Source: Catajapyx aquilonaris (Eukaryota). Taken from it: DNA of 55,241 nucleotides. The stretch spans positions 1 to 55,241 of the forward strand of contig KZ538672.1 in assembly GCA_000934665.2 (NCBI GenBank). The letters run 5' to 3'. The notes under the pieces were generated by a model, which was given only the letters and a program-made list of their open reading frames with translations, ran no database searches and was not told where the DNA came from. Made by a program: the position numbers and the translations under genes. Positions 5,412 through 39,670 of the stretch are shown one piece after another (within the stretch, counting starts at the first letter, position 1; each line of letters opens with the position of its first letter).

Positions 5412-5434
5412 ATAATAATAATAATAATAATAAT

Positions 5435-5487
<53 letters not shown>

Positions 5488-6277
5488 CCATCACCATCAT
5501 CACCATCACGACATTTCCCTATAAGGGGTAGTCAGCGATGACGGGAGCCACAAGCTAACCCAAAATATGAACCAAATTAAAGCTTGTAAAAATCAACCTA
5601 TAAACCACCCATCCGGCCCCCACCCCTGCCCATCTCAGACGACAAACTNNNNNNNNNNNNNNNNNNNNNNNNNNNNNNNNNNNNNNNNNNNNNNNNNNNN
5701 NNNNNNNNNNNNNNNNNNNNNNNNNNNNNNNNNNNNCCCCCCCCCCCTGGAAGAGGAATCAGGAACTGTTAAATTCCTCCCAAGTTACTAGAATATTCTC
5801 CTCTAAACGACCAGAACACCCACAGGCCAGCGAGAAGAACCAGCATACAGAAATCCACACTCGAACTCCAAACGTGCTGTGCAGGACAGAAAGAGAGGCA
5901 GATACCCTTGCAAGCATGACTACTGGTGCCTACCTATGCATTACTGTGCAAGAGATATTAAAGTCAAACTTGTAGTTCTGCACAGCACCCAGAGCCCAAG
6001 TATGAACTTCCAGACGCCGACTCCTCCCACCAACCTGCAAACATTCTAGCCATTCGGAAGAATTCAATGGACACTGCCATTCCTCACAAACCCGCGAATA
6101 TTCTACCCATTAATTAACCTATGCCATTTACACCTATCCAAACAAACAACCTTAGCCTCAGCCACATCCATGGTCCTATTGACACATGAACGTCTCGACA
6201 CTAGCAACACCCTTAAGACACTGACCCACCTGGTCCAACCATGTCTTCCTAGGCCTACCCTTGCCCCTCTTACCAAA
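5412..6277 (-). mobile_element. RTE-type LINE 3' end (RT tail, 3' UTR, (GAT/TTA)n tail), spans an N gap
   Basis: Reverse complement of the 33822-34670 copy. Encodes [16 protein letters not shown]...CLDRCKWHRLING. Confidence 0.85.
5649..5736. other. Assembly gap (88 N)
   Basis: Run of N. Confidence 0.99.
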
Positions 6278-6322
<45 letters not shown>

Positions 6323-6360
6323 TGATGATGATGATCATGATGATGATGATGATGATAATG

Positions 6361-6415
<55 letters not shown>

Positions 6416-6453
6416 TGATGATGATGATCATGATGATGATGATGATGATAATG

Positions 6454-6505
<52 letters not shown>
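6278..6505. repeat. Compound (AAT)n/(GAT)n microsatellite with a 93-bp internal duplication
   Basis: Identical GAT/CAT-interrupted blocks start at 6321 and 6414. Confidence 0.95.
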
Positions 6506-8263: not shown

Positions 8264-10271
8264 GAAGGAAGGTATATATCCGCGAGGAAGTGCGCACCTT
8301 TTGCATCAGTCTGGGCATTATTGTCATCACTTCGAAGTTGTGGTCCATTTGGAAAGGGCTTCCTTCTCTGACGTATTGCTGAATTTTATTTGATCCTATT
8401 TTGAGACCCGGTGTCAGTGCTGATGTATATCAGGCTTCTAGGATGTGAAGGAATAGATGCATGTACAAGTATTACAGTATCACCATGGAGGACATCAGTA
8501 CAGAAGCGTTACCATAGTAACTCTGCTTTTGATCCTTGTGCACAGTGCGTTCTTCATACGAAATCAAACGTTCCACATACTTTGACATTTAGACTTTCGC
8601 AATTAGCATGGAAAGACTATTAGAACGGGTTAATATCTCGATATGCGCATTAGAGCTTACGTCCTGGACCGCACAGCGACGGATACGCTGAGCTTGATTA
8701 CAAACAGCAAAGGTCGAGGATGTATGTCCCAATGGGCCATGACGTTCACAGGAACTGGAAACGGCCCACGTTGCGAAAGTTTTGTTGGTGATTTGGCTGC
8801 TTTTTACTCAGAGAAGTGGGCGTCGTTGGGTAGGCGGCGTAGTTAAAAATCTTTTGACGCAGGTGACTGCTCATGGCGCGATTTACCTGCACAGGGTAGG
8901 GTGAAGTATGCCAGTGTAACTGTATATTTGATTTTCAACCACGAGGGCCTTCAGAACATCTATGGAGTAAAAGGACATATGTGATTTCACCAAGGAAGTC
9001 ATCTTTTTGTCATTCTGTTGGTGGTTGGCGTCATCCGCAGGATGACCCCTCCATTACTTACCTGTGTAACATGCCATTATCTCCGTAATCGCTATAATAT
9101 CAACAGCGGTAATTTCGTCTTAGAATGTCTCAAGAAACCTAGGTCAGAGAGGAAGTGCGTACCTTTCCCACCACCCTGTACATACTGTAGAGATGCAGAT
9201 GTGTGAAGGACATGCTGATGTGTGATGTCCCATATTCCCGAAATAGGAACCTTTATAACGAAGTTGTGAAACCTGCATATATCGGAGTCCCTCCGTTATG
9301 CAAAAAATTCCGCAGTTGATAGGTCACAGGTGTTTGCTGTATTTGGCATTGGCAATACTAAACTATAGGTAAAATAATTTAAGGCGCATTACTGCATTAG
9401 CACGCATCCGTCATATTGGGTTCCACGTCCGTACGGTTTTCGAGTGACGAATTTGTGTTAGCCGCCGCCACCTTTCGACCGCGAGGGTGATTTTTCTCGC
9501 CCCCGTGCCGTATCCGCCCATTTTATGCCCTACTTCCGGTTAGCCGAATTTGTGAAGCCGCCTGAAATGCCTTAAATCCGTTATACCCCAAGATTTCTTT
9601 TAGGAGACCCTAAATTCCTGTCCATTTCCTCGGGAGACATGTCCCGCTATAACCGACAAATATATCTGGAAAGTACTATTTTGCTGGCAAGATTGGTTCC
9701 GCGGCCTTCTGCGGATAAGGAGAGCCTGTGATACTTTTGCAATACTTGCCATCCGCTTTGAGGTGGACTCCTCTACTTATCACAATTATTTTTATTTTGA
9801 AAGCGCACTTTTGCCCTTTTGCTCACATGGTCTACATAATTATGCCCTTTGAGGTGACTGCAGCATCCCATTCCAGCCACATGATCTGCAGTCAGCCACT
9901 AGGATCAGATCACGTGACCAAGCAAGGTGCCGCAGTTTACCCTAAGAGTTTACCTGGCAACATCTTTTCACCCTTAACGGAATAATCAGGGCCAAAGTCA
10001 CTTAAGCCAAAAATGGACACAACTTTTGCCGCAACCGTTGTTGTGTCCAAATCCTTTTGAGCAACTGCATCACATCGGCTTAATCTCGGTGACCATCGGC
10101 CACCTTTGAGCAGACCGTGTTTTGTAGGGATCTCCGGTGTCTCGGGACCTTGGATTGCCGGAGAGAGAGAGGGGGAGAGAGAGCGCTCTTTGGAGAGATA
10201 GCAAAAGGCCGTCTCTCCCTTTCTCCCCCCCTCCCCCCTATCCCGGTCCACAGACAAAGAGGCATTTTGGG

Positions 10272-10330
10272 CGGCGGCATGGGCTTTGATCAGGAGGCGC
10301 GGCGGCGGCGGTGGCGGCGGCGGCGGCGGC
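10272..10330. promoter_or_regulatory. Putative TCF/LEF Wnt-response element (HMG site plus helper-like sites)
   Basis: GCTTTGATC at 10283-10291, flanked by CGGCGGC (GCCGCCG on the - strand) at 10272-10278 and from 10300 onward. Confidence 0.45.
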
Positions 10331-10550
10331 GGGGAGGGCCGACATGGGATGGCAATGATCGCCGCCTACAGCACTTATTAAAAGTTGGACACACTTTGGA
10401 CCGGTCGGGTCACTGCCACATCGGTCACCCTGTATGTATGCTTTCGACATGGATGTAAACAATGCAGCTCTTTTTTTTGTTTGGTTTTTTTGATGGTACG
10501 GTGCTGGTGGTCAGCTGATTCGGACAGTTCACCTGTCAACTATTGGCACT

Positions 10551-10671
10551 ATGGCACAAAATAGCGAAAACGGTCAAAATGATGGTGTTGGCCACATGGG
10601 GGCGAACGGACACCGACCGCCCTACAAGAGTGGGCGAGCAGGCGGCGACGGGCCTGGTGGAGGAGGCGGGG
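10551..10671 (+). CDS. Candidate alternative first coding exon of Axin (MAQNSENGQNDG...RAGGDGPGGGGG)
   Basis: Strong Kozak context (cactATGG) in the CpG-rich region. Donor G|gtacgg is in phase 1, compatible with 24702 or 28956. Confidence 0.3.
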
Positions 10672-12984
10672 GTACGGGAAACTGCCCCGGGCAAGGTGCC
10701 AGGGAATTTGCACCGTTGCCTTTCTTCCCCCCCGTGCCGCTCTCGATGCCATGCTGGCCGCCCCTGAGTCGGGCAATGTTGACCCCGACCCTCTCCAGAG
10801 GGGGCGGTTGACAAACGTAGAGAGATGCATGCGCCGACACACCGATAGGCGACGGTGTCCTTTGACTGGGTCCTTCCGAGTTGATATGGCAGCTGGTGCT
10901 GGGAGGCGGGGCAGTGTGGAGAGGAACGGGCTGGGGGAGGGAGGGGAGAGGGGGGTAGAGCAGGCAGAGTTGGTTCGTAACTGTGCCATGTGTGTTGTTG
11001 ACAGTGTGACTTGTTGCAGCTGGTGCGGAGGTTTCGGTTCAATGTGCTGGTGCGTGCTTGCCTGGACTGCATATTCGCAAGTGAGGCATGTCCAGGTGGG
11101 GGTGACCGACCGACCGGTACGGTAGTGTACGGTGCACCTGTGACTACACACTTTCCGGCGCTGCAGATTATTAGAACGAGTGTAAACACGGTGGATATTT
11201 CGGCGGCGCTGGAGATTCGACCGGCCAGCGTGAGTACAGTAATGTCTGGACACATGTTAGTAATTCTGGGAACGTTGACATCGGGAGATTCCATTTTATT
11301 GTCATACGGTATCAATATTGGCTTGTTACAAGCAATATTCTTCAATGTAATAATTGAGGAGGGTGCGCGTAGTGTCACGAGCCCGTCCAATATTCGCGAA
11401 GATTGCCAAAATAATTGGAAGAGCGCTGGTGGACGTTCATCAGGAAATTATGGCCATTACTGAAGGGTCGAGGACCCAACAAGCCTATCATGTCATTAAG
11501 ATTATGTAAGAAGTGGGTCGGGAGTAATCCGCCATCTAATAAACTGCGAGGAAAAGGTGGTGATGCTGATGACAATGTGATGCCAAGTAATCAATATTAT
11601 TCAGATGGCTACGGTTATAACAATAATTTTGGAAATTAGTGACACGTGTTGGCTCGACAGCCGCAGTGAGATTTTTGATCACTTGGAAAATGTTTGTTCA
11701 TCTCGTAGACAGTCAGAAAAATCCATCCCATACGTACTGCTCCAAACGTGAAAACTTCTTGAGGGAAACCCATGCAGCACTCACTTGTGTGACATTTGGA
11801 CCAGGCATTTTAGTGTAAATCATGCTCATTGGACCTCTTCGAATGCTTTGAAGGTTGGGTATGCAGACGCGTAGGTATTCTGCCTGGCATCCAGTAATAT
11901 TTTGTAAGAAAGAACAGGTTTCGGTTACGTTCCAAAGGAGTATTTGGCAACGTTCGGCCTTCCCGTCTGTTTTCTTCCTCAGCCACATGGATGGAATGCA
12001 TGGCAGTTGGAGGTGGCCAGCCTGTCAGAGCCTGGACCGGGCTACTATGCTGGCCGATCCATCCATTGATGCCGCGATTCTACCTGAAACCTACGCTTAG
12101 GTTGCCGACAAAGGGGATGGATCGAGGTTACCCGGGCCACCTGCATTGTGTCGACACTGCATGGATGGAAAGCCGGATTCATTCAGCTATTGTGGGCTCG
12201 GGTTTCATCAGGCGGTGTCTACCACTCTTACATTGTACTCGAATTTGGTGGATTCCAGGATGAATGTCACGGGGAAACAGCTTCATTTTGCGACATTGAG
12301 TACCGATGATATTAGCCGAAATCGGAAATTCAATATGTGAGTGTTCCAAGTTGACAAAGATTACTCCCTGTGAACTTGTCCATGATTTCTTCTTGCACAT
12401 ATAGATTAAAGCTATTATTTTAATAAAATCTTCATTATGATTTCACTGCCGACCGTGGCATGGCCGTATCATATCCTGGGGAACACGCAGTATAATTAAG
12501 TGGGAAATGCTATTGAAATAGCGCTGTAGAGGCGCTGCATTGTAGCTAATTTAAAGGAAACTATCATCTGGGCTAATAAGGAAGTGATTGTAAAGGGTGC
12601 TGCAAAATTTTTTGTCTGGCGGTAAACATGCTGACAGAATGGTTCTCTCAATTTTCTGATTGGCAAGATTAAATGCCGAACTGATTTGGAGCCTGTTCAT
12701 TGACCAGTCATGCCCCATTCATTACTGCAACAGTGGCTTCATTCAAGTTTTTTTTTCGGTTGATCTCCATACGTTTTCAAGTGTTTTAATTGGTCAATTT
12801 TCTTCCTGTTTTCCATTATCAATTGAATTTTTCTGGAATATATTCCTCTGTAAAGTTCTTAATTACCATTCGGAATTGAATGGTGTCTGTCGCGTCTTTT
12901 TTATATAAATATGATTACATTGAGGCCTTGCATTTAGAAAAAATATCACTTGCGCAGAGTAAAAGGGGCGAATAAATTATTTAA

Positions 12985-17000: not shown

Positions 17001-20000
17001 TGTGTGTGTGTGAGGGAGGGGGAGAGAGAAGGGATTGGGAGAAGGGAGTGAAGGAGGCGCAATGGCGGGCGGCAAAACCTGTTCGGTAATTACTACGGTT
17101 GGAGACAAGAAGGAAAATTTATGGGTTGGAAGCCCCACCTCACCTGAATGCACTGCGGGTCTGAGAGGCAATGAAGGGGGTGGGGTGGGGTGGGGGGTGG
17201 GGGGCCTCTGACGGAGATGAAGATAGAGAAAGAATAAGAACAGAGAGGCACAGCAACACCTTTTGGACATGTAACATGCGGTTATGTCACGAGATGACAA
17301 CATGGATCGCTTCTCCACAGTTGCCAGCAGTTGTATTCCCACTGTAAAGGTGGCGCAAATTGTTTCAATGCGAGCGAAGGTTGTGGTCTGCACCATTTTC
17401 AAATGAAACAACGGCAACCACTGATTTGAGTAAATCTTACGACATGCGAATTATGACGTGATACCTGAAATTGTGTTAGATGTGTACGGTACAGTACTCT
17501 TATCGTGAAAAACAGACTAATGGCAGGAAATATCTTGCTGGTTAGATCTCGAGGCTACTGCGAATGAGAGATTGTCTAATGAGAAAGATATTCCGTAATA
17601 TTAACATGAGAGGACCAACAATTAATTGCCGCCGCACATCGTTGCGATTCGATACCACCTCCAGCTAAAAATTATGAACCGGTAGAGCGTTTTGGCCTTG
17701 GAAAAGGTCAAGGCATCGCCTATATGCCCATTGCGCACGTACCCACCACCCGGTGTATTGTAGTTCGAAAGCATGGAGAGATTCACTGACTCATCCTATA
17801 GTAGCCTATAGTGTAAGACACGAAGGCGGGTTCTCTGGAGACGACAGTGTATAGGGTAGTGATGACAATATGGAATTATAGAGATATTGCCATCGATTTC
17901 AGATCTGAATCAATCCAGCCCTCAAGAATAAGATTACTGCTATATGTTGCTTGTCGGGGGGGGGGGGAGGGGGGGTGCGTACGCTTTGCCAGCCCCGGTC
18001 TACTCGCATATACTATACGTCGGCATGGGCCCTTCCCAAAGCCGAGGTTGGCACTCTGTGAGTGACTACTATTTAGCATAAATTGACATCAGTGTAATTT
18101 CCCATGTAAGAAATGGTTACTTCCAAACATGACCGTCGCTTTTTTTTATATAAAAAAAGGCAGTAAATCTCCTATGTGTGTCATGTACTGTCCAATACTG
18201 TACATTCGATTGACCCATGCCTGTTCAAACCCCCCCCAGTCCTGAGGTGTTTTTTTTCTTCTTCTTCTTCCCACGTTCGAAGAACTTGCGGATTGTTTAC
18301 TCCAGCCACCAGTTTCAAGAGAAGCAACCTGTTGGAAGAAACCGATATTTTCGGGAGGAACACACGCAAACTCAATTAATATCAATTTTAGTGAACAGTA
18401 TGTCAACTCTGAAAATTGAGCATTTTACTACAATACCAGAAAAAGGATATGAAAGTTCTAAAGTGTTCCTAGCGCTTTCTGTGGGCATTTGAAGTTACAT
18501 AAAAAAACGTAATTTTCAAATCACGATTTCTCAGGTGGGGATCTAATGGGGGGGGGGGGGGNTGCTTTTACGCAAATATGCAAAGGGGCTGTTTTTTTCT
18601 GCTTCATGTAATGTTATTAGGAACAACCGCACTAAAAATTATCGCAATCCGTGCCGACACCGATCATGCAACACATCCTTTTCCATGCTAACCAGGTTTC
18701 CGATATTCCGTTATAGTGTGTTCCAATGAACGATTTTTTTTTCCCACACTAAAGCGTTTGTGATTAAGCAGTTACTCTCAGGAGTTATCAAATATTAGCT
18801 GCCGAATCCAGGTTTCGTAATAGACTGCAATTTCACTGTGTATGTCAAAAGAACATTTAGGATTTTTGAGACATGATAACGTTGGTCTATTAACACTTTG
18901 GGCGAGGGCACCGCAGGTAATGTAACAGTTTAGCCCCCCGTACTGTTTCCGTCAACATGATCGTGTGACAGACCGGATAGGAAGTCCGAGCAGCGTGCTC
19001 GTGGCAACACCGACCGGGTAGGGAGAGGGGTGAGAGAGCGGGAGGTTTTTTGGGGGGAGGTGGAGGTTCCTTCAACTCCGAAGTGGCATGGCGGCAGGGA
19101 GCGCGGCAGGGAGCGCGGCAAGGGCGGGGGAGGAGGGTGTGGGGTCGGAGTGAGGTGAGGTGGAGTAGGGGGGGGGGGGGGAGTGGGCCGCCTGCCTACC
19201 GCAAAGATGGCGAGGAGACGGAAGAAAGGGCAGGATGAAGAGGCCACTACCAAGCGGGGAGCTGCCCGACATTAGGAGAGCCGCTTGGCGGCCCACTCCA
19301 GCCCGGATCGCATTTCCTGATGAACAGCTGGCCGACAGGTACAAGCGGGGATGCTTGAATACCCAACATGTTAATTTCAAAACATGACCCCAGGCCTAGC
19401 TGGGAAAGGGGGTACTTCAGGTTGTAATGGACCACAGGTAGCACGGTAGTACATGGAAGCAACGCATGGAGTAACACTGGTCTGTGTAGTACAGAGAAAG
19501 AGGTGTTAATATTACGGTTTATAATAAGGGCTGCGTTGGGTCAATGCGCTGGTCCTTTCCACACCAACCGGAGGGATCATTCAGAGCAGGAGCTACTATG
19601 CTTCTTGGCCGTGTTGACACAGTAGCCAGGTGTTTGTGAGGAAGATTAGAGAAAATGGTATTACATTACGTATTAAATTATGGAGAAACAAGATTATGAA
19701 ACAATTGGGTAATGTGAGCAGGGCTGGTTGTTTTAGGCTTGATTTTCATGCATTAAGCAGGTGCACACATAGCAAGCCAGTAACTCCCCCGAGCATCAGG
19801 AGAGTAACCTACTGCTCATGCTCACTCGCCTCCCGAATGGGTTTCACATTATGGGGCAGACCTTTTGTTATTTGACAAGTTCTTGTGTTGAAACCAAGTG
19901 GTGTCAATCAAAAATGGATCACCATTCTTCCATTTTTCTGAGAATAAATTCGAGTCATGAATGGGCAAGGAACACAAACTCCAATAAGCTCTTTTAAAAT

Positions 20001-28600: not shown

Positions 28601-28822
28601 TGGGTCGAATTTTAAAATTTCGGTCCAGATGCAAAGTTTGCACTCCAGACTTTAATCTGGAGTGCAAATGGCTTGGAGTGCTTAATTTTTAATTGACTTA
28701 CTGGGTATAGCCATGTTTAAAAGCAGAGCCAATTGGAGTGCAAATTTTGCACTCCAAGGCTCAGTTTGGTGTGCAGATGACAATTTTGGAGTGCACCTTT
28801 TCATCCCAATATTTCGACCCTT
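28601..28822. mobile_element. Small TIR element with internal TGGAGTGCA repeats
   Basis: GGGTCGAA...TTCGACCC termini and repeated GGAGTGCA/TGCACTCC. Confidence 0.5.
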
Positions 28823-28955
28823 GCTATCCATTATGCTCATGCAGTGCTCATGCAACCTGGTGTTTCTGTTCTGAAGATGCTTGTACCCACAATTTTGAAG
28901 TTTTTAGTGTTGCCTAATGAAAATGGCAGTCTTACACATGCCTTTTGCCTTCCAG

Positions 28956-29664
28956 GAGGTTTGGTTGGAAAGGAGATGGGGGCAGAGGGCGATGAGATGG
29001 AAGGAGGAAGAGAATGGACACCACCTTCTGAATCTCCAACCCCTCCTTACCTGAGGTGGGCGAAGAGCTTGGGCATCTTACTAGATGATATGGACGGGGT
29101 GAAGTTGTTTCAGACGTTTCATGAAAAGGAGAATTTTGGACAAATACCACTGAATTTCTTATTTGCGTGCAAGGGTCTGAAAAAAACACCACCTGACAAT
29201 GTGACCAGCACAGTGCGACTAATCTACAAGAGATTGATGATGCATCTCCCACCAAATAGCTTGAAAGAAAGCACACGCAAAGAAATATGCGCAAAGGTTG
29301 CTGCACAGGAGATGTTGACTGCAGACATCTTTGACGAAGCTGAAAAGGAAATAAATATTCTCATCAACAACGCAATTTATCCTAATTTTCTACGTTCGGA
29401 AGTATACTTGGGCCACATCCAGAGCTGTCAAAATGGGTCAGAACCATCAAAATCCAGTGACTCAAGCCATAACAGCAGTGACCTAGAGCTTCCTACTGGT
29501 GGTGGTCGGTTGCCAACCCTTCATGAAGATGCAGAATTAACGTCATTGTCTGCACCGCAGTCAGTGGCATTGACTCTTACCAGGGACACCCTGCTAGCTA
29601 CTCAAGAAAGGCGAGCGTATCCTTGGTCAGGCGATGGCAGGCCTAGGGTGGATGCCTATGCTGG
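28956..29664 (+). CDS. Axn: Axin exon, RGS (APC-binding) domain
   Basis: [24 protein letters not shown]...FLFACKGLK...IFDEAEKEI...[11 protein letters not shown], then LPTLHED and [14 protein letters not shown]. Acceptor ttgccttccag (phase 1), donor GG|gtacgt. Confidence 0.96.
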
Positions 29665-32600
29665 GTACGTGTCTTGTTTAGGAGTGTAAGGAAGCTTGGA
29701 ATTTTTGTCAGAAAGCGAGGAGGGGAGGGGGGAATCCCTTCTGGGAAAATGGATTTTCCATGCAAATAGTGAAGAGACTTCTTGGCTTTTTATTGCTATT
29801 GTCAATATATGATTAACTTCTGTTTAATTCATTCTTAAAAATCTTATTGGGCACTATTCAGAGTCAGCAATGACAATTTTGTGCCGTGCACTGAACCACA
29901 CGACTGCTGTTAGTGCAGTACACTGCGAAAATATGATGTGGGGTCGTCTGTTCAGTCTAGCATGGACTCAACATAAAAGTGAAATTTTACATTCACACTG
30001 CAGAGTACAAAGCTAGTTCATTTCACCTGGTCTGCCAATTAAGCAGATTTTAAAGACGTGTTACAGGTGAAAACAGATGAGGGACTTTCTTTGGGTAAAG
30101 CCAAACTTTCAATCAAATGAAAAAGTTGTTTTATGTAGTCGTACAAATTCAGGTTTCCCAAGAAATCCGTCATTTGCAATTTTTGTCACCTCGGAAAACC
30201 AGGGAAAAATCTTTTCGCCTTCTGGAACTAGTTTTATCAAAGGACAGATGCATTGTTATATGTGGTTATGGATTGAAAGGTCAGGATTTCATGATTAAGA
30301 GACATTACGCAGGAAAGGGTTACATTACGAAGGGGTTGTGTTCAAGGTGTATAGTTTTGCACCCCTTCTAGGTCAGTCGTTCTCCAGTTCTGTTGACTAT
30401 GGCTCACTTGGAATGGCAAAGATCTTTGCTCCAGAACTTGCCTTTATAGATCTGCAAAATCAGCAAAGGATCCCCTTGTTGTCAAAACCTTGCTAATTTA
30501 TGCTCCAGGTGATGGATTCATGATAGCAGGCATGGGTTAAAATTGCACCCCAGCTACAACAGAAAACTCATTATACTGGATTCGATGTAGCAGTTGTACT
30601 ATGTGTGCTCCACATGCAGTAATTTACCTGATGGAAGGACTTTCATATATCACGGCTTATCAGACCATGAGAACCATTATTCTAGGTTACTTGCTCATCT
30701 GGAGAACATACCATTTAAACCTCTGTTAACAGGGAATGCAAGTCTTTTCTCGAACATTAGAACAGGAAATTATGTGTACTCCAGTAATGCTGCTCAGTGA
30801 TTCTAGTTGCAAGTTGTCCAGGATGCCTACCTTTGCACTTTTGCAGAGATATAAAATAATATGTCAATCAAGTTAACAGCGCAAGTGGGACTCGATGATT
30901 CAAGGGAGGTGTATTTAGCATATCATGACTGTGATTGATATTTTCATGGAAGGAGCTGCTTATGAAGCTGAATTGAGCGTAGTGTTTCAATTGAAGTGTC
31001 CATTTCAGTTTGGGACATTTTTGGGACACTAAGTTGCATATTATGTAGCTGTTTTTTCTTGGTTACTTTTTGGGGCTATTGAATATGTTAGCTATTAATA
31101 ACTGTTGAAAGGAAGAGCCTATTCAAGCCCTAGATTACAATAACTCTCCTAATTAAAGACAGTGACTTGTTTGGATTCCATTGGCATCTGAGATGAATAG
31201 TTGAACCCATTTTATCCAGACAGGCACGCCTTCAGTGGTTAAAAGTGATATGGTCATTGCACTTAATATCAGCAGCTTGCGTACAGGTAGCCAGCCCCCT
31301 GACACTTCTACCCCTCTTATGGAGACCCATGAGCTTATCAGCACACTCCCGTAGTGGGTGTTGCTGATTTGGTGCTCATGCCTCATCCTCTCACTAACGG
31401 GGATGGTGGTGGTCCTGGCAGACAATTACTGAAGTTGCGTCTAAAAGCACTTGCATGATATATCTTTTGCAAGAAGGTGAAGCATGAGCGCCATATGGGA
31501 AACACCCCCTGCAAGGGGTTGCACTGATAAGGGCACGCAATAAGAAGGGGAGTTTCCAGACCGGAGTATTCTAAGACCATGCAAGTAGTTCCCACTTTAT
31601 GACGTTTCACATTAACAACTTTTTCAGAATTGCCTTTAAAAAGTGAAAAGGGAATACACAAATTCCAAGTAAAAAAGTCAAAAGTCATACATCGCTAAAA
31701 TGCCTGAGTCCAAATGTGCAATAAGGGCTTCCTTTGGTTTTCCTGGTGCATTATAAATTAGTCTAATTTTACGACCCTGTTTTGCTGGAACTTCACCCCG
31801 TCGTAAAAAGGGGGCTACCTGTATTTGATAAGCCCTAAATGTAACAAAGTAACCGATTTACAATGAGCTGCTTAGTACAAAATAATTACTGACAGAAAAA
31901 TACATTTTAAAATGGATCACATAGTATGTTAATCACACCTTACTGGAATCCCAGAGTGTTTTAAATGTGCTGTTTCCTTGAGAGAGAGAGAGATGGGCAG
32001 GTAGCAGGAGTTGAGCACTCAGCCCTGCTTTACAGTTTTATTCAATTACCCTGTGTCTTGCCTTTCTCATTTTAAATGGTTGTGTTAAGTTGTAGAAAAT
32101 TTTTCTACTGGCATGCACCCTCCCCAACTTGCATGTGAAGAATATGTGGACATTGGCATTTTGTGTCTGGAGAGTAGTGTTTAGCAATAGTTTACATTTT
32201 ATATTCATGTCCACCTTGGTCTCAAAATGCTTGTGTTGTATGAAACGCTACACTTAAGTTTCATTCACTTGTATTTCTTGATGGCCCAAGTTGTATGCCT
32301 TGTCGAGATTAATGGACTCTTTAAGTTGCCAATTGAGAAGTATAGTATAGTTATTTCTGCACCACTTATTATCACTTGTGTTTACTGGCTGTATCATTTG
32401 AGCTTTTGCCTGCTTTGTTTTGCATTCAGGCACTACTTGCATCATGGACGCCCTCCCAACCCCTATCACATGACTTACGCCCCCTATAACCCTGTTTCAC
32501 GGCAAGATAGTGAGCTCCAGAGTTTGAGTTCGGAGGCACCAACAGAAGATGGGTCTCTGTAAGTACATGTTCCTTTTTTATCAAAGTGCATGTCCAGGGG

Positions 32601-35600
32601 TCAACTTGAAACAGTCTTGCCTCAGGCAATGCTTTGAATCAGCCCCCGGACACTCCTATACCTCATACATGGCTCCCCCTGTGACCTTAGCTCTACTCTC
32701 CCATCGAGGGGGTTTGCCACGGCCGGCACTGGGATCAGGAGCCAAGATAGGTGCGCCACCACTCCCGGGAATTATGAAGCACTAAGCTCGACTCCGATTG
32801 GCTGGGGTAGTATAGGAGGCCTTAACTGCTCCAGCCTATTGGTGTCGACCCATATGGTTCACAATTTCCCACTAGTGGTGGCGCCCCGAACTTGGCTCCT
32901 GATCCCATGGCCGCCCGTGGCAAACCCCTTCAGTGGGGGAGCATAGCTAAGCTCGTACAAAATAGCGGGAGGTGTCGGGGTGGCTGCTTTGAATATTCTT
33001 GATGTAAGCACGTTCTGTTTTGTTTTTGAGTCATGCTGGTCATGTAGTCTGGGTTGATTTGTAATTTCGCCAATGTTTCGTGTTAATTTAGATATGCTTG
33101 TGGGAAGTTACGCACGATGAGAAGGTTAAAAATCAACTTGTCGCCATTTCCCCCCACATGTATCACGGCTGCCATCTTGGGAAAATGACGGCCAAAAAAC
33201 GGTTTTCAATAGTATCTTTTTAACCATTCATTTTATGGAACGATATTTTGAATGAAACTTAAGGAGAATTAAAAACCACATCGAAAAGTACCTAATCAAT
33301 AATTTGATAACTAAACATTGAGCCACAAATGAGCGGACAATGTCCATTACTACCTTCGTTTGAATTAGCGTGGTAAGAATTGTTCAAAAATTGCGTGCTG
33401 CTGTAATTTTAACTATACTTTTGATCTGTTTGTGGGAAGTTGTTAAGGATGATAGGAACTTACAGGGGAGGAGAAGTGGCGCTGCGGTAACGTACGCGCC
33501 CACGGATGTAGGGGTCCCGGGTTCGATACCAAGCCCGGGCATCCCCCCCTTCATCTCGTGCAGAGTTGGGTCGTCTCTGGCTTCGTCTCGGGTGGGATTC
33601 CTTGAGACTAACCACCCGGGGGAGTGCACAAAATATACCAAGTGTAGACATTGCACATCCCCTCCTACTCTTCCCCCCTTCGCTCGCGGTACCCGGGCGT
33701 TACGGGAAAGGACTACTTGTAAAGCTTGTACATCTGAAGCATAATAAAGGTACCGTGCCAGATGCCCAAGAAGGGTGGTGCACTAACCCAATTATTATTA
33801 TATATTATTATAGGAACTTACAGGGTGTGTAGGTCTACTCTAAGGTGGTTTGGCCATGTGGAGAGGATGAAGGAGGAGGAGATTGTGAAGAAGGTTTATT
33901 TGGGTGGAGTAGTTGGTAAGAGGGGCAAGGGTAGGCCTAGGAAGACATGGTTGGACCAGGTGGGTCAGTGTCTTAAGGGTGTTGCTAGTGTTAAGCCGAG
34001 ACGTTCTTGTGTCAATAAGACCATGGACGTGGCTGAGGCTAGGGTTGTTTGTTTGGATAGGTGTAAATGGTGTAGGTTAATTAATGGGTAGAATATTCAC
34101 GGGTTTGTGAGGAATGGCAGTGTCCATTGAATTTTTCCGAATGGCTATAGAATGTTTGCAGGTTGGTGGGAGGAGTTGGCGTCGGGAGGTTCATGCTTGG
34201 GCTCTGGGTGCTGTGCAGAACTACAAGTTTGGCGAATATCTCTTGCACAGTAATGCATAGGTTGACACCGGTAGTCATGCTTGCAAGGGTGTCTGCCTCT
34301 CTCTCTGTCCTGTACAGCGCTTGGAGTTCGGGTGTGGATTTCCGTATGCTGGTTCTTCTCGCTGTCCTGTGGGTGTTCTGGTCGTTTGGAGGAGAATATT
34401 ATAGTCACTTGGAGGAATTTAACAGTTACTGATTCCTCTTCCGGGGGGGGGGTTTCTCAAGTACCGCGTTGCATAGTCATGTAATATTTATATTTAAAAT
34501 ATAATATTGAGAGTTTGTTGTCTGAGATGGGCAGGGGAGGGGGGGTTATATGGGTGGTTTATAGGGTGATTTTTACCATTTTTAATTTAGTTCATATTTT
34601 GGGTTAGCTTGTGGTTCCCGTCATCGCTGACTACCCCTTTATAGGGAAATGTGGTGGTGGTGGTGGTGTTATAGGAACTTACGAAATCAACTAGTCGCCA
34701 TGATTTTCGCTACCTATTGCAGCCGCCATCTTGGAAATATGGCTGCAAAAACCGGCATTTTTTGGCTTTACTTTTTGAACAGTTAATAATATCATAAGAT
34801 GACTCAAACATTGATAATGCAGTTTTCGATGCGGAATTCAATTCTCTTTTAAGTTTCATTCGAAATAGCTTTCCATAATATGAACAGTTAAAAAGGTAAA
34901 ATTGAAAAGCCGTTTTTTGCTGCCATTTTCCCATGATTCCGTCCGTAATACGTGAGGGGGAAAATGGCAACAAGTTGATTTTTAACCTTCTCATCATGAT
35001 TAACTTCCCACAAACAGATCAAAATTAACGGGAAATGTTAGCGAAGCGGATTTTTTGAACAAATCCGGCCGGACTAATGAGTGTGCTAGCTTAGTCTAGT
35101 GTAAGAATTATGTACAGACAGTGAAACACGACTTTGCTTGGCATGGGATGCCCGCCATTTGTCAATTCTTGAAGTCACTGGAAATACTGATTCAAAATTA
35201 TTTTAAATTTCATCCCAAGGGAAGGAATGAAAGTTGCACAGCACTAGAAATTCACATGCAGCTCACATACAAGAAAGAAATGTTGCAATGCATTAATGCA
35301 TAGCAAATGTTAGTTTATATATGGGAATTGCCTCATGTGTTCATATTTTCAGCAATGGAACATCAGGTAAACGTCATTGTAACAAAGGGCCGTGCAGGTT
35401 AGGACAGAAGGCATCTAAGACAAAGGGACCCCTAATTGCTGACCCAATGGCATCAGGCCCGTTCATTCCAAGAACGAGCAGGCTACCTGAGCAGCAGGTT
35501 GGTTGTTAAGCATTAGCGAAGCCTCTTCCTTCAGAATGTAACTGAATGTTGCATTTGCAGAAACGTCAGATGGAACCTGCAGAGTTTGTGAAAGAAGTGA

Positions 35601-38600
35601 CTGAAAAACTATTAGCAGTGCAGCGAGATCGGGAGAGAAGTGAGAAGATAAACAGCGTTCTTGGGGTCTGTAAAATTGTCTGGAAGACTGCCATTTTACT
35701 TGTCCAAATTGGAGTTAAATGATATTGTCTTGCAGCCTGATGAAGAATCTGCTGTGGGAGAGTCATGTCCCATGTCAGTGCCCATGTCATTGCCCATGTC
35801 ATTGCCCATGTCAGTGCCTCATAGTCAGCATTCTACAGAAGGGATGACTCGTCGTGTGTTGGCTGCAGTAATTAAGGACAAGTTACCTCAGGGTATCGTG
35901 GAAGATGACCAGGCAATATTAGGTGAGTCTCAAGTGAGAAGCCGGTAGGGCATCGTGGGAATGTCTCAACTCATCTAACATTTCTCTTATTAGACAAGCA
36001 CGTGTCTCGGGTCTGGTCAGAAACACCTTCATGGTCTTCAGGGGGGCTCTCTCCGCGTCCACATTCGCCAGAGGGCATGCGGCGGCGATCACGTTGTCCC
36101 GCTGTATCCATACCGATGGGAAAGGTAGGTGTTTGTTATAGTAGGGAGCAAGAAACAGTGACAACAGAATTCTGGAATAAACTCTTTGACTTTTCCTTTA
36201 TGACAGGGTGGCGGCGTATTTGGACCTGCCCACGCGCCACATGCCACCTCCTGCCATCCCATGGATACAGTTGGAGTATTCAATCCATATCAAGCTCGTA
36301 CAGCTTACTCGCACCATCGGAGAAAAGAGAAGGTACAAAAGGTGATTCAAGTTATTTCCTGGTCTTAGGCCAATTGTTTAATGCAAATTGGAACTATTGT
36401 GAAGACAAATTTTTTTCAGGATGTGTATTCCATCTTTTCCTCCGATTCTGGGAATGTGCGCGACTTCCAGGATGGATCAGAGCAGTATTTCCACATCCCT
36501 AAATCAAAATCCATGCCTGACTATGGTGAAGTGCAGAATCAGGAGTTGTTTCCAAACTGTGCTGGTCAGTGGAGATTCTGAAATTTATCCTCATAATATA
36601 TACAGTAGATGCCACATTCATTCCTGTTGTATGAATTAGGTTTTGATCCAAGTCGTCGGGTTGGAAGGGATGCAATGCGCAAGTCTGTGGCTAAGAAGGT
36701 TTGCAATGATCTCACGGACAGCGGAGTGAGTGTCATATCAGACACCCCACCCTCCGTCCCTTTTGCTGCCGATCAAAAGTATGTGTTTGTCTGTTAAATT
36801 TCTTGTGGGTGGATTCTCAAAGTATAACTCAATTCTTCTTTCTCAGGGTGCGCTCTTGGGTGATGGATGCCAAAAAATACAAACCTCAGCAGTACGTGGA
36901 TATGGAGAAAGAGTCCTCAAAGCACCGTACTCGTTCAAGCAATGCAACATCACCTAGTACCTCCAGGTCAGTTGGAATTTGGACAAGACTTCAGATATTT
37001 TGTATTGTAATAGACCTCATGAAGCAAATTATAAAGTGTCATAATTAGAAAAGGAGCTGGTGGTGCAAGAGTCATGTAAAAATGCCATTTTTAGTAGTCA
37101 TTGCTAACACCACTCATCATGTTGTAGGTCAAGTCGGAAACAAACATCTGCTTATTCTGCCAACTCACGTTCTAATTCTTTGGAAAGATGCAGCCTGGGA
37201 ATGATAGGAGTTGTTGGAGATGGAGTTCCCAACCAACCAATGGCCACAGACATACTCATGCCTCGATTGCCCCAGCCCAACACTGAAACACAACTATTGG
37301 AAACACGTAGGAGGCTGGAAGAAGACGTGCTGGGGAAAGTTGTCAAGCCAAGGTACTTGGACTTAACTCTTTCGCCGCCGCTACTCCCCCCGCTTAACTC
37401 ATGCATGACTTAATCGTATTTTAAAAATTCAATATCTCACCAAGGTGATGTGTTAGCCCCATGCCGCGTATATCATTCGAACCGCACTGAATCGCTGCTC
37501 CCGCCAGATTTACTGTGCCGCCCCCACAGTCTAGGCCGCTCATATCATAACAGCTATAACTACTAATACGCATCTACTCTGGGGTCGGAAAAAACGTAGT
37601 GTGAATTATACAGGATAAAAAAACCAATCTATGCAACATATTGCTTAGAACCCCATCTAACTAATTACTGAATTCCCAGAATTGTGCTAGACTTCATACA
37701 ATCTCTCTCATTGCACGTATAACCTTTTCCAATATGGCCGCCAGAAGATGACGTCATACTAAAAAGTCCCACAAAGCACTTGAGCATGTGATTTTTCTGT
37801 TGAAATCTGCGTTTTTTTGCATGTGAATGTGCCGAAAACCGCGTTAATATATAATTAATAGATTTTTTTGCAAATGATTCTCAAAATGTTTGTCCGTGGA
37901 GCACGGACACGGCAATGAAAGAGATAACCAGTTGGTTAGCTAATTTGATAAACCAGATTCCAGTAGCATATAAATGCTTTCAAGGCATGGACGAGACATT
38001 GACACTCATGACCACTTGTTGCAGGACCTCCAGTTCAGTAAAGCCGCAGCACTTGGAAACTTCAAATCCCTCCACCTTGAAGAAGAGTCGTTGCAGCAGT
38101 GGTGCTACTTGCTCCCGAAGTTTGGCCCCTCCACACCCATCTTCTGGAGCAGCTGAAGCAGGTGACTGCACGGTGGTCATGTACAGCTTTTGTGATGAGG
38201 AAGTGCCATACCGCAGTCGCTTGCCAGGAAAGCCTGTCACGCTGCGACAATTTAAGGAGCTTCTTCCAAAGAAGGGGAACTATAGGTCAGTGACAAATTG
38301 CACTCAATCATGACCACAAGTTAATACAGTTGACAATCTCTTATCTGAAACCATTGGGGCCAGGCATTTTTCTGAATTCAGAATGATTATAAATTTTGGA
38401 ATGATACAGGTTTATAATCATGAATGGTCCACGATCTTTTGTGATTTAATTAAGAAAAATACACGTCCTCAAACTCACTACGAACCATCAAATGTGATGT
38501 GGTTTCAATAGTTGAAGGACTTGTTTACATCAGTGGAAGAATCTAGCCTTGAAATAATGGAGGTTGAATCCCGGGTTCCCAAATCCTAGATCAGGGGTAT

Positions 38601-39670
38601 TCAACTAGTTTATGACAAGGTCCAGTAATTGGCTTTCCTGGGCCATTGAACGTCGGGACGACAACCCCCCCCCCCAGGTAAAAATATCTAGATTTTATAT
38701 GGTACTGTGCTGGACATATTAGCCGTCGCTGAATGTTTTTTTCCGGCGGTGGCGGGGTTACCTGGCAACCCTGTCCGGCGGGCCAATTCAAACATCAGCC
38801 CATGGAGAGCGCTTCCATTGTTGCCACTGTTTACAAATCGAGTGAGTGACGCGGACGACCCAGCACTCACTCGATTTGTAAACAGTGGCAACAATCGAAG
38901 CACTCTCCATGGGCTGATGTTTGAATTGGCCCGCCGGACGGGGTTGCCGAAAAAAAACATTCAGCGACGGCTAATTTGTCCAGCACTGTACAACAAGGTT
39001 CATATTCGAAAATAGAAACATGTGCAGCAAGGGTAGAAGGGGTGAACAAGCCGTAAAGGGTGGAATACGGCTTTTTTTTAGGGTTCAAGGTCCCACGAGC
39101 TTAGGTGAATGTGGGACATTTGAATGGGTGTGTATTTGATGAAATTGGTCGGCCCTTTTTCCAAAAAATCATGAATTAGTAATTTATCATGCTATTTCAA
39201 ACCGTCCTGTATATTGTCGCGGTCCGGACAAAATTGCGTCGCGGTCCGCCAGTTGAATACTGCCGATAATGCTACACCAAGCTGGCCACAGGCGCTAGCA
39301 TAGGGTGCATATGGGAAGATACACTAGCGCCTATGTGGGAAGGGCACAGCTTTTTCTATTGGGCTGGGATAGAAGTGTCTGGGGGCTGCTGTGGTGAGAG
39401 AATTGTTTACCAGCTGCAACCTGAGGTAGAACATTGAAAACATTTTTCTCATACACGTCAAGAGCAACATGTTTAGCCTTTTTTGGTGGCCCCTCCTCCA
39501 ATAAGTGATTAGCAAAAGAGTTAATTGTGTTCATCCCTTGTAGGTTCTTTTTCAAGACTCCTTGTGATGAAGTGGATGAGAAAGTGATTCAAGAGGAAGT
39601 GCATGAAGACAATGACATTCTTCCTCTTCTGGATGGTAAAGTGTTTGCAGTGGTGAAACCAGCGGAGTGA
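28956..39670 (+). CDS. Axn: Axin, spliced CDS core: join(28956-29664,32430-32558,35353-35497,35561-35665,35736-35922,35994-36124,36207-36332,36420-36564,36640-36778,36847-36966,37128-37352,38025-38285,39544-39670); N-terminal exon(s) upstream
   Basis: All introns are GT-AG and phases join without stops (2549 nt plus 1 nt from a phase-1 upstream exon, about 849 aa). The order RGS, GSK3-binding, beta-catenin-binding, DIX is diagnostic of Axin. Confidence 0.96.
31284..31821. mobile_element. pogo/Tigger-like non-autonomous element
   Basis: TA-CAGGTAGCC ... GGCTACCTG-TA. Confidence 0.5.
32430..32558 (+). CDS. Axn: Axin exon (PNPYH...[16 protein letters not shown])
   Basis: Conserved Axin motif. 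Acceptor gcattcag, donor gtaagt, phase 2-2. Confidence 0.93.
32630..32995. mobile_element. Imperfect palindromic MITE
   Basis: GGGGGTTTGCCACGG...GGGATCAGGAGCCAAG is mirrored by CTTGGCTCCTGATCCC...CCGTGGCAAACCCC. Confidence 0.65.
33465..33809 (+). mobile_element. tRNA-derived SINE (family B)
   Basis: GGTTCGATACC B box, (TTA)n tail, flanked by ATAGGAACTTAC. Confidence 0.88.
33822..34670 (+). mobile_element. 5'-truncated RTE LINE
   Basis: Encodes [10 protein letters not shown]...[11 protein letters not shown]...WCRLING-stop, then a 3' UTR of about 580 bp and a (GGT)n tail. TSD ATAGGAACTTAC. Confidence 0.92.
35353..35497 (+). CDS. Axn: Axin exon (FIPRTSR motif)
   Basis: Acceptor attttcag, donor CAG|gttggt. 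The IPRT motif precedes the GSK3-binding helix in Axins. Confidence 0.85.
35561..35665 (+). CDS. Axn: Axin exon, GSK3-binding helix
   Basis: [22 protein letters not shown] resembles Axin1 VEPQKFAEELIHRLEAVQR. Preceded by a 63-bp intron. Confidence 0.9.
35736..35922 (+). CDS. Axn: Axin exon with PMS(V/L) repeat, start of beta-catenin-binding region
   Basis: Acceptor tcttgcag. Ends EDDQAIL with donor G|gtgagt. Confidence 0.88.
35769..35816 (+). repeat. Coding tandem repeat, 4 x 12 bp CCCATGTCA(G/T)TG = PMS(V/L)
   Basis: Read directly inside Axin exon 35736-35922. Confidence 0.95.
35994..36124 (+). CDS. Axn: Axin exon, beta-catenin-binding motif
   Basis: Splicing rebuilds [18 protein letters not shown]. 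Donor AAG|gtaggt. Confidence 0.92.
36207..36332 (+). CDS. Axn: Axin exon (...HHRRKEK)
   Basis: Phase 0-0. Joins to give [17 protein letters not shown]. Confidence 0.82.
36420..36564 (+). CDS. Axn: Axin exon ([11 protein letters not shown]...KSKSMPDY)
   Basis: Motifs I recall from arthropod Axins. Acceptor ttttttcag, donor G|gtcagt. Confidence 0.88.
36640..36778 (+). CDS. Axn: Axin exon ([12 protein letters not shown])
   Basis: Phase 1-2, donor gtatgt. Arthropod Axin DSGVS motif. Confidence 0.88.
36847..36966 (+). CDS. Axn: Axin exon (KVRSWVMD)
   Basis: Acceptor ctttctcag, donor AG|gtcagt, phase 2-2. Confidence 0.85.
37128..37352 (+). CDS. Axn: Axin exon (PNQPM...[22 protein letters not shown])
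   Basis: Matches the Axin MPPxxxPNxxxQLEEARRRLEE motif. Phase 2-2. Confidence 0.92.
37367..37923. mobile_element. piggyBac-like (TTAA) MITE in an Axin intron
   Basis: TTAA-CTCTTTCGCCGCCG ... CGGCAATGAAAGAG-ATAA. Confidence 0.55.
38025..38285 (+). CDS. Axn: Axin exon, DIX domain N-half
   Basis: [38 protein letters not shown]. Donor AG|gtcagt. Confidence 0.95.
38592..39265. mobile_element. hAT-like MITE hosting a palindromic MITE
   Basis: CAGGGGTATTCAACT ... AGTTGAATACTGCCG with subterminal GCGGTCCG repeats. TSD not evident. Confidence 0.65.
38705..38988. mobile_element. Near-perfect palindromic Tc1-like MITE
   Basis: Arms of about 130 bp around a loop of about 14 nt, flanked by TA. Confidence 0.88.
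39544..39670 (+). CDS. Axn: Axin last coding exon, DIX C-half and stop
   Basis: [41 protein letters not shown] then TGA at 39668-39670. Acceptor cccttgtag. Confidence 0.95.

Follow-up and report, generated by a model that had tools for sequence, protein, structure and literature searches.

The 55,241-nucleotide (nt) stretch of Catajapyx aquilonaris DNA analyzed here (contig KZ538672.1 of GenBank assembly GCA_000934665.2, forward strand; hereafter the window) contains a gene for Axin, the scaffold on which GSK3 and β-catenin dock, and exon 5 of this gene carries a tandem array of a 12-base-pair (bp) unit that places a Ser codon at every fourth codon. The array forms the larger part of a ladder of eight Ser/Thr residues spaced four residues apart, which resembles a run of GSK3 sites. 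We consider it probable, though well short of certain, that the array is a young coding minisatellite made by slippage, which lengthened the disordered tether between the two docking sites of Axin and has been tolerated there as a spacer. The features on which this reading turns are the following.

35561–35665, plus strand: exon 4, GSK3-interaction helix (PDB match 8vmg_C; alignment to other Axins)
35736–35922, plus strand: exon 5, 187 nt, phase 0 at its start and phase 1 at its end (carries repeat, ladder and conserved helix)
35761–35828, plus strand: 12-bp tandem array, ~5.6 units of TCA-KTG-CCC-ATG, end units with indels (alignment to tandem consensus, Tandem Repeats Finder)
35763–35849, plus strand: eight Ser/Thr with 4-residue spacing (S366, S370, S374, S378, S382, S386, T390, T394)
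35838–35882, plus strand: predicted short helix (AlphaFold2; MAFFT match to hexapod ..S.RSLADAIRE[KR][LF]..)
35994–36124, plus strand: exon 6, β-catenin-binding helix followed by a conserved S/T-Pro cluster (PF08833; tblastn)

The translation of the open reading frame (ORF) at 35652–35948 placed the first Ser codon of the ladder (TCA) at 35763 and the last Thr codon (ACT) at 35847–35849, in exact agreement with the coordinates and the eight-site spacing given in a first-pass annotation of this DNA. The ladder corresponds to residues 366–394 of the 829-residue model and lies between the GSK3 dock (residues ~326–345) and the β-catenin dock (from residue 417), a placement that the same annotation had proposed and on which the Pfam scan, the PDB match, tblastn and the MAFFT alignment agree. 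Its codons read TCA TGT CCC ATG / TCA GTG CCC ATG / TCA TTG CCC ATG / TCA TTG CCC ATG / TCA GTG CCT CAT / AGT CAG CAT TCT / ACA GAA GGG ATG / ACT.

Within this segment CCCATGTCAKTG occurs in four contiguous copies at 35769–35816, confirming the four-copy repeat described earlier, and nowhere else in the window; 0.71 matches were expected by chance, and four matches anywhere were obtained in 2 of 100 shuffles. Tandem Repeats Finder reported 35769–35828 (period 12, 4.8 copies, 91% matches, 4% indels, score 88); two other arrays in the window share this period. Local alignment to the tandem consensus covered 35761–35828 (~5.6 units, score 98, two indel pairs). The copies lie head to tail with high identity, the unit length is a multiple of three and four exact copies are contiguous, as expected of a coding minisatellite. 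The first unit (S-CPM) is repeat-derived and carries a compensated indel pair, and the last part of the array contains two single-base insertions, CC[T]CAT[A]GTCAG.

This anatomy accounts for most of the ladder. Since the unit consists of four codons with one Ser codon, Ser recurs at every fourth residue over five sites, and a single TCA codon, copied with the unit, encodes the five Ser concerned (366–382). For S386 the codon is AGT, which comes from repeat-derived DNA read in a shifted frame, and T390 and T394 are the sole ladder sites outside repeat DNA, their DNA being unlike the unit (score 8 versus a shuffle mean of 8.7, standard deviation 2.1). The register had been said to continue past the DNA repeat on both sides. 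Downstream it does, with T390 and T394, but upstream it does not: it ends at residue 362, which is Ala, and the first unit is itself part of the repeat.

Comparison of the units with one another points to the age of the array. The five clean units share the same Ser, Pro and Met codons down to the third base, the single CCT stemming from the insertion. They differ by substitution in the second codon alone (TGT, GTG, TTG, TTG and GTG), and units 2–5 at one G/T position. Because synonymous positions are identical between units, the array would be either young or continually homogenized, which makes length polymorphism plausible and says nothing for function. Purifying selection on the invariant Ser, Pro and Met was considered and rejected, since the synonymous third positions are equally invariant. 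We infer a slippage origin, a young age and near-neutrality of the array.

The proposed course of events is that the 12-bp unit TCA-KTG-CCC-ATG, coding for Ser-x-Pro-Met, expanded in frame to ~5.6 copies, most likely via replication slippage, within what appears to be a constitutive exon linking the GSK3-docking helix to the β-catenin-docking helix. The array contributes ~22 residues, and the inter-helix linker is 75 residues long here and would be ~52 without it. The lengthening from ~52 to 75 residues most likely provided extra flexible spacer that the scaffold tolerates. Some of the ladder Ser may be phosphorylated by GSK3 docked ~20–50 residues upstream, which would be a side effect of composition. 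AlphaFold2 run on exon 5 alone as a single sequence (mean predicted local distance difference test score 67.5) predicted coil for exon residues 1–34 and helix for residues 35–49, with T394 inside the predicted conserved helix and T390 immediately before its first residue.

We next compared the linker with those of other Axins. The whole model reached its best identity, 42.6% over 900 aligned residues, with axin X1 of Anabrus simplex (P0154). MAFFT aligned both flanks of the repeat, and the repeat block itself faced gaps almost throughout in every other Axin. Linker lengths in other Axins ranged from 42 to 79 residues, with one protein (P0145) at 146; these lengths came from regular expressions locating both helices, which missed 15 proteins and mis-hit P0018 and P0022/P0167. 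Since the 75-residue linker stays within the 42–79 range of other Axins, the array is most likely a tolerated spacer. By this alignment a linker that varies within the family has received a lineage-specific insertion, which brings its length close to the top of that range.

The register was not found elsewhere in the family. The longest period-4 Ser/Thr run was 1 in 12, 2 in 34 and 3 in 4 of 50 distinct Axin segments, each a fixed 90 residues upstream of the β-catenin motif (motif-less proteins, those with fewer than 90 residues before the motif and duplicate segments being left out), compared to 8 here; a run above 3 was thus present in 0 of 50 segments, the nearest Axin compared being only 42.6% identical. 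The longest run of 4-residue periodic identity was 4 in these segments versus 7 here. The alignment of orthologous Axins for repeat number and register that had been suggested with the annotation accordingly gave no comparable 4-residue repeat in the 50 segments at the distances reached.

Wider searches with the exon sequences gave the same picture. The RGS exon (exon 1) retrieved three matches at 39–40% identity from 1961 word-sharing candidates when compared with longer proteins in 90% clusters, and a HMMER search of 1.84 billion representatives gave 461 matches at E ≤0.001 (168 at 1e-10 and 6 at 1e-30; best identity 47%); the named top matches were Axins of insect, millipede, spider, crustacean and nemertean origin. 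A JGI metagenome scan with the same exon identified 12 loci at 35–41% identity, 3 of which had the β-catenin motif, with a longest linker period-4 run of 2. The repeat exon gave 43 candidates and none at E ≤10 against longer proteins, and no candidates against near-length proteins. None of these protein or metagenome searches found a relative near enough to judge conservation of the repeat.

Two elements around the ladder are shared with relatives. The hexapod element ..LADAIRE[KR][LF].. sits between the GSK3- and β-catenin-docking helices, frequently has Ser/Thr just upstream of it in relatives, and is, to our knowledge, without an assigned function. In one metagenome Axin (P0035) the linker has a period-3 Ser run, SLVSQGSNRS, right before the conserved LADILREKL helix, a CK1-like rather than GSK3-like spacing. 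The second element is the S/T-Pro cluster at 36018–36070 in exon 6, which comes directly after the β-catenin-binding helix, is conserved and reads TPARTPGVASPRPKSPDF (..SPRPKSP..) in Halyomorpha; tblastn against Halyomorpha axin gave 50% identity over exon 6, SPRP[HK]SP included. The S497 and S500 sites of mouse Axin stand in an S-Pro context. In vertebrate Axin, the cluster at 36018–36070 probably corresponds to the region regulated by GSK3.

How readily could the register arise by chance? Three more Ser/Thr in register past the clean units have a probability of ~0.008 when one side is considered and 0.026 for either side, at a Ser/Thr frequency of 0.197 taken from the non-domain part of this protein; the test is post hoc and weakly significant. 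Among 179 Axin-family proteins and fragments (95,402 residues), 42 had a period-4 Ser/Thr run of at least 5, and 2 had one of 8. Those long runs that were inspected, including both of 8, sit in Ser-rich tracts elsewhere in the protein, so period-4 runs arise readily without being conserved sites. T390 and T394 need not be a kinase motif, because they lie at a conserved helix start where relatives commonly have Ser/Thr, which would fit a helix N-cap. The Catajapyx Axin has two further period-4 runs: one of 4 steps at residues 264–276, after a conserved segment (exons 2–3, 32430–32558 and 35353–35497), a location at which 5 steps occur in a hemipteran Axin, and one of 6 steps at residues 616–636, in a Ser/Thr-rich tract (exons 10–11, 36847–36966 and 37128–37352).

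The reading of the array as a tolerated spacer has to be weighed chiefly against the alternative that GSK3 on the neighboring helix uses all eight Ser/Thr as a genuine multi-site substrate, which we regard as unlikely yet deserving of serious attention. Once any site toward the C-terminus had been phosphorylated, GSK3 would step toward the N-terminus by four residues at a time, adding up to eight phosphates between the two docking helices; linker charge or extension, β-catenin affinity or GSK3 availability would be altered, and copy number would tune the effect. Several observations weigh against a tolerated spacer or speak for such a substrate. The insertion was kept in frame within an essential scaffold, GSK3 docks on the same polypeptide ~20 residues upstream (20–50 residues from the ladder sites), the S/T-x-x-x-S/T spacing is exact across 8 sites, and the segment is predicted to be coil, hence accessible. 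Moreover, S386, T390 and T394 stay in register after the five clean units (P ~0.008–0.026), and S386 does so through a different Ser codon, AGT, despite two 1-nt insertions, which a neutral model would not predict. Axin is also a known GSK3 substrate: PMC3977945 describes a 4-spaced GSK3 triplet in rat Axin, S322/S326/S330, that stabilizes Axin, and in mouse Axin GSK3 phosphorylation near the β-catenin-binding region at S497/S500, in line with what the first-pass annotation had stated, and PMC5800574 reports several GSK3-dependent phospho-forms of Drosophila Axin that change with Wingless. GSK3 prefers Ser/Thr with a phospho-residue at +4, and unprimed substrates can also be phosphorylated (PMC4102778). 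By analogy with the rat triplet, and with the kinase tethered, the mechanism is chemically plausible.

The sequence of the ladder and its distribution nevertheless argue against a GSK3 substrate. T394 is followed by Arg-Arg-Val(-Leu), which provides neither a Pro at +1 nor acidic residues, S/T-Pro is found at 0 of the 8 sites, and T394 lies within the predicted conserved helix with T390 just ahead of it. By inspection, the C-terminal end of the ladder has no recognizable priming context, whether acidic (CK2/CK1) or S/T-Pro. Neither the 50 other Axin linker segments nor the 3 metagenome Axins contain the ladder, its units are identical at synonymous positions and show no sign of residue-level selection, and the conserved post-helix cluster SPRP[HK]SP is more likely the counterpart of the known regulated sites. 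The idea that a phospho-ladder tunes the destruction complex was left unsupported: no linker segment out of 50 had a ladder above 3, the block is a unique insertion, and the units are synonymously identical. A more elaborate version, in which the array is a lineage-specific, evolvable phospho-rheostat, appears improbable as a whole. Slippage would have multiplied a pre-existing S/T-x3-S/T seed beside the GSK3 dock, the tethered kinase would fill the ladder and place up to 16 negative charges by the β-catenin-binding helix, β-catenin capture would rise or GSK3 would be occupied as by a tethered pseudo-substrate, and copy-number alleles would shift the Wnt threshold among individuals or populations.

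It is decidedly improbable that the Ser-x-Pro-Met units act otherwise than via GSK3, through another kinase, a docking motif, or the length and stiffness of a Met/Pro-rich linker that would fix how far bound GSK3 sits from bound β-catenin. Within the units, Pro and Met vary no more than Ser does, and a linker near the top of the 42–79-residue family range is one whose length could matter; against this, the invariance covers synonymous sites as well, which points to youth, no relative found carries the units, and inspection revealed no S/T-Pro, PxxP, DSGxxS or 14-3-3 type Arg at −3. We consider it very improbable that the ladder is missing from the mature protein, or that its copy number is an assembly artefact. 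An in-frame AG at 35827–35828 (cag/CAT, junction 35828/35829), 93 nt into exon 5, could serve as an internal acceptor, and the donor of the preceding exon, GTCTGT, is weak; the internal AG, however, has a poor pyrimidine tract and an out-of-frame AG 4 nt upstream, which makes its use to skip the ladder unlikely as judged from the sequence. The splice sites of exon 5 itself are both strong (acceptor ttgcag/CCT, donor TTAG/gtgagt), and the whole exon is required for frame. Its length of 187 nt equals 3 × 62 + 1, so that skipping would frameshift the β-catenin and DIX parts; because everything downstream would be affected, exon 5 as a whole would be constitutive. As to assembly, tandem repeats are error-prone, but any read is far longer than the 68-bp array, whose units bear distinguishing variants.

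Both categories to which this element belongs, the Axin orthologue and the coding minisatellite, are already known. Among well-studied GSK3 targets, glycogen synthase has sites 3a/3b/3c/4, which are primed by CK2 and on which GSK3 proceeds from the C- to the N-terminus. It shares with the Catajapyx ladder a 4-spaced Ser run, a Pro-containing context and an S-V-P-x-S step, but its priming site for CK2 is clear and acidic residues come after it, whereas the last site of the ladder is followed by Arg-Arg-Val. LRP6 carries five copies of a PPPSPxS phospho-motif, through which it binds Axin and inhibits GSK3. They are likewise reiterated Pro/Ser motifs of the Wnt pathway that engage GSK3 once phosphorylated; unlike the array, they have S-Pro sites, 3-spaced within the motif, are dispersed rather than tandem and are conserved across animals, while the Catajapyx units are Ser-x-Pro-Met and lineage-specific.

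By analogy, the closest known counterparts of the array are the rat Axin S322/S326/S330 triplet and the coding variable number tandem repeat (VNTR) of human PER3. The rat triplet belongs to the same family, has the kinase docked on the substrate itself and shows S-x-x-x-S spacing; it differs in comprising three sites rather than eight, in lacking a DNA repeat and in its place in the protein, and the Catajapyx ladder is known from sequence alone. Mouse Axin S497/S500 offer a parallel in that GSK3 phosphorylation close to the β-catenin-binding helix regulates the scaffold, keeping Axin active and being lost upon Wnt stimulation (PMC3977945); these sites come after the helix, in contrast to the Catajapyx ladder, which comes before it and is not conserved. 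The PER3 VNTR has 4 or 5 copies of an 18-residue unit with putative CK1 epsilon sites (PMC3360144). Like the Axin array, it is an in-frame coding minisatellite whose copy number alters how many putative kinase sites a disordered region of a signaling protein carries, and it has been proposed as a tuner; polymorphism is documented for PER3, the kinase and the spacing differ, and the Axin array is known from one sequence. According to PMC3360144, the expected effect of the VNTR on period was not found.

The gene surrounding the array was modeled from splice sites, domain matches and alignments, and its remaining features are listed below.

28976–39670, plus strand: Axin gene, coding model (13 exons, 829 residues; a further 5′ exon upstream is possible)
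28976–29664, plus strand: exon 1, RGS (APC-binding) domain (PF00615, E 8.1e-15, 55.7 bits, cut-off 23.9, ORF 28781–29686)
38025–38285, plus strand: exon 12, first half of the DIX domain (PF00778, E 1.2e-14, ORF 37855–38310)
39544–39670, plus strand: exon 13, second half of the DIX domain and stop codon (PF00778, E 4.1e-10, ORF 39509–39667)

All 13 exons have AG/GT boundaries, and the 2490-nt frame is open and ends with a TGA stop at 39668–39670. The Pfam scan, which took 150 of the 184 plus-strand stop-to-stop ORFs of at least 45 residues starting at or past position 20000, gave matches in 4 of the 150: RGS, Axin_b-cat_bind, DIX and DIX. Searches by tblastn with three hemipteran Axins marked the same exons, including those between the Pfam-matched ones. 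In exon 4, the sole match in a PDB search was the Axin-1 peptide 8vmg_C (E 0.019), and the helix aligns with the equivalent GSK3-binding helix of other Axins in both tblastn and MAFFT; the donor of this exon (GGG/GTCTGT, 35663–35671) is weak, and no other in-frame option joins the next exon. The β-catenin-binding motif, matched by PF08833 in ORF 35927–36499 (E 5.7e-06, 26.5 bits, cut-off 23), crosses the junction of exons 5 and 6, and a PDB sequence search with exon 6 gave no match. The N-terminal tankyrase-binding family PF16646 had no match in the 150 scanned ORFs; the model takes the first Met in the RGS exon as its start and may lack an exon farther upstream. With an RGS domain, a GSK3-interaction helix, a β-catenin-binding motif and a C-terminal DIX domain, the gene at 28976–39670 is an arthropod-type Axin.

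Elsewhere in the window, Pfam found no match above threshold in 112 additional ORFs of at least 75 residues, beyond the plus-strand ORFs of the first scan. A GC-rich island at 10000–12000 (52% GC versus ~42% elsewhere), with a GCG microsatellite at 10299–10332, contains long ORFs in several frames on both strands and no Pfam match; it may be a promoter or 5′ exon region, the first Axin coding exon lying ~17 kb downstream. A possible transposon remnant lies at 9604–9849, where HTH_Tnp_4, a family covering the helix-turn-helix of DDE transposases, matched below threshold (E 6.4e-4, 19.7 bits, cut-off 27). Long ATA/ATC microsatellites lie at 5412–6505 and 5649–5736 (ATA ×75 at 6280–6505), beside an assembly gap of 88 N.

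Taken together, the probable reading of the array as a tolerated spacer would make it a clean case of a coding minisatellite that yields a kinase-like pattern of sites for free, and regular spacing within a repeat is not evidence of selection. Should the ladder instead be a working GSK3 target, a core Wnt scaffold would have gained a multi-site phospho-switch in one step, by slippage beside a kinase dock, and copy number would constitute a natural allelic series for the effects of linker charge and length on destruction-complex activity. For annotating Axin in a poorly sampled arthropod lineage, the gene model is useful, and so are the conserved elements near the ladder, namely the short helix before the β-catenin-binding motif and the S/T-Pro cluster after it.

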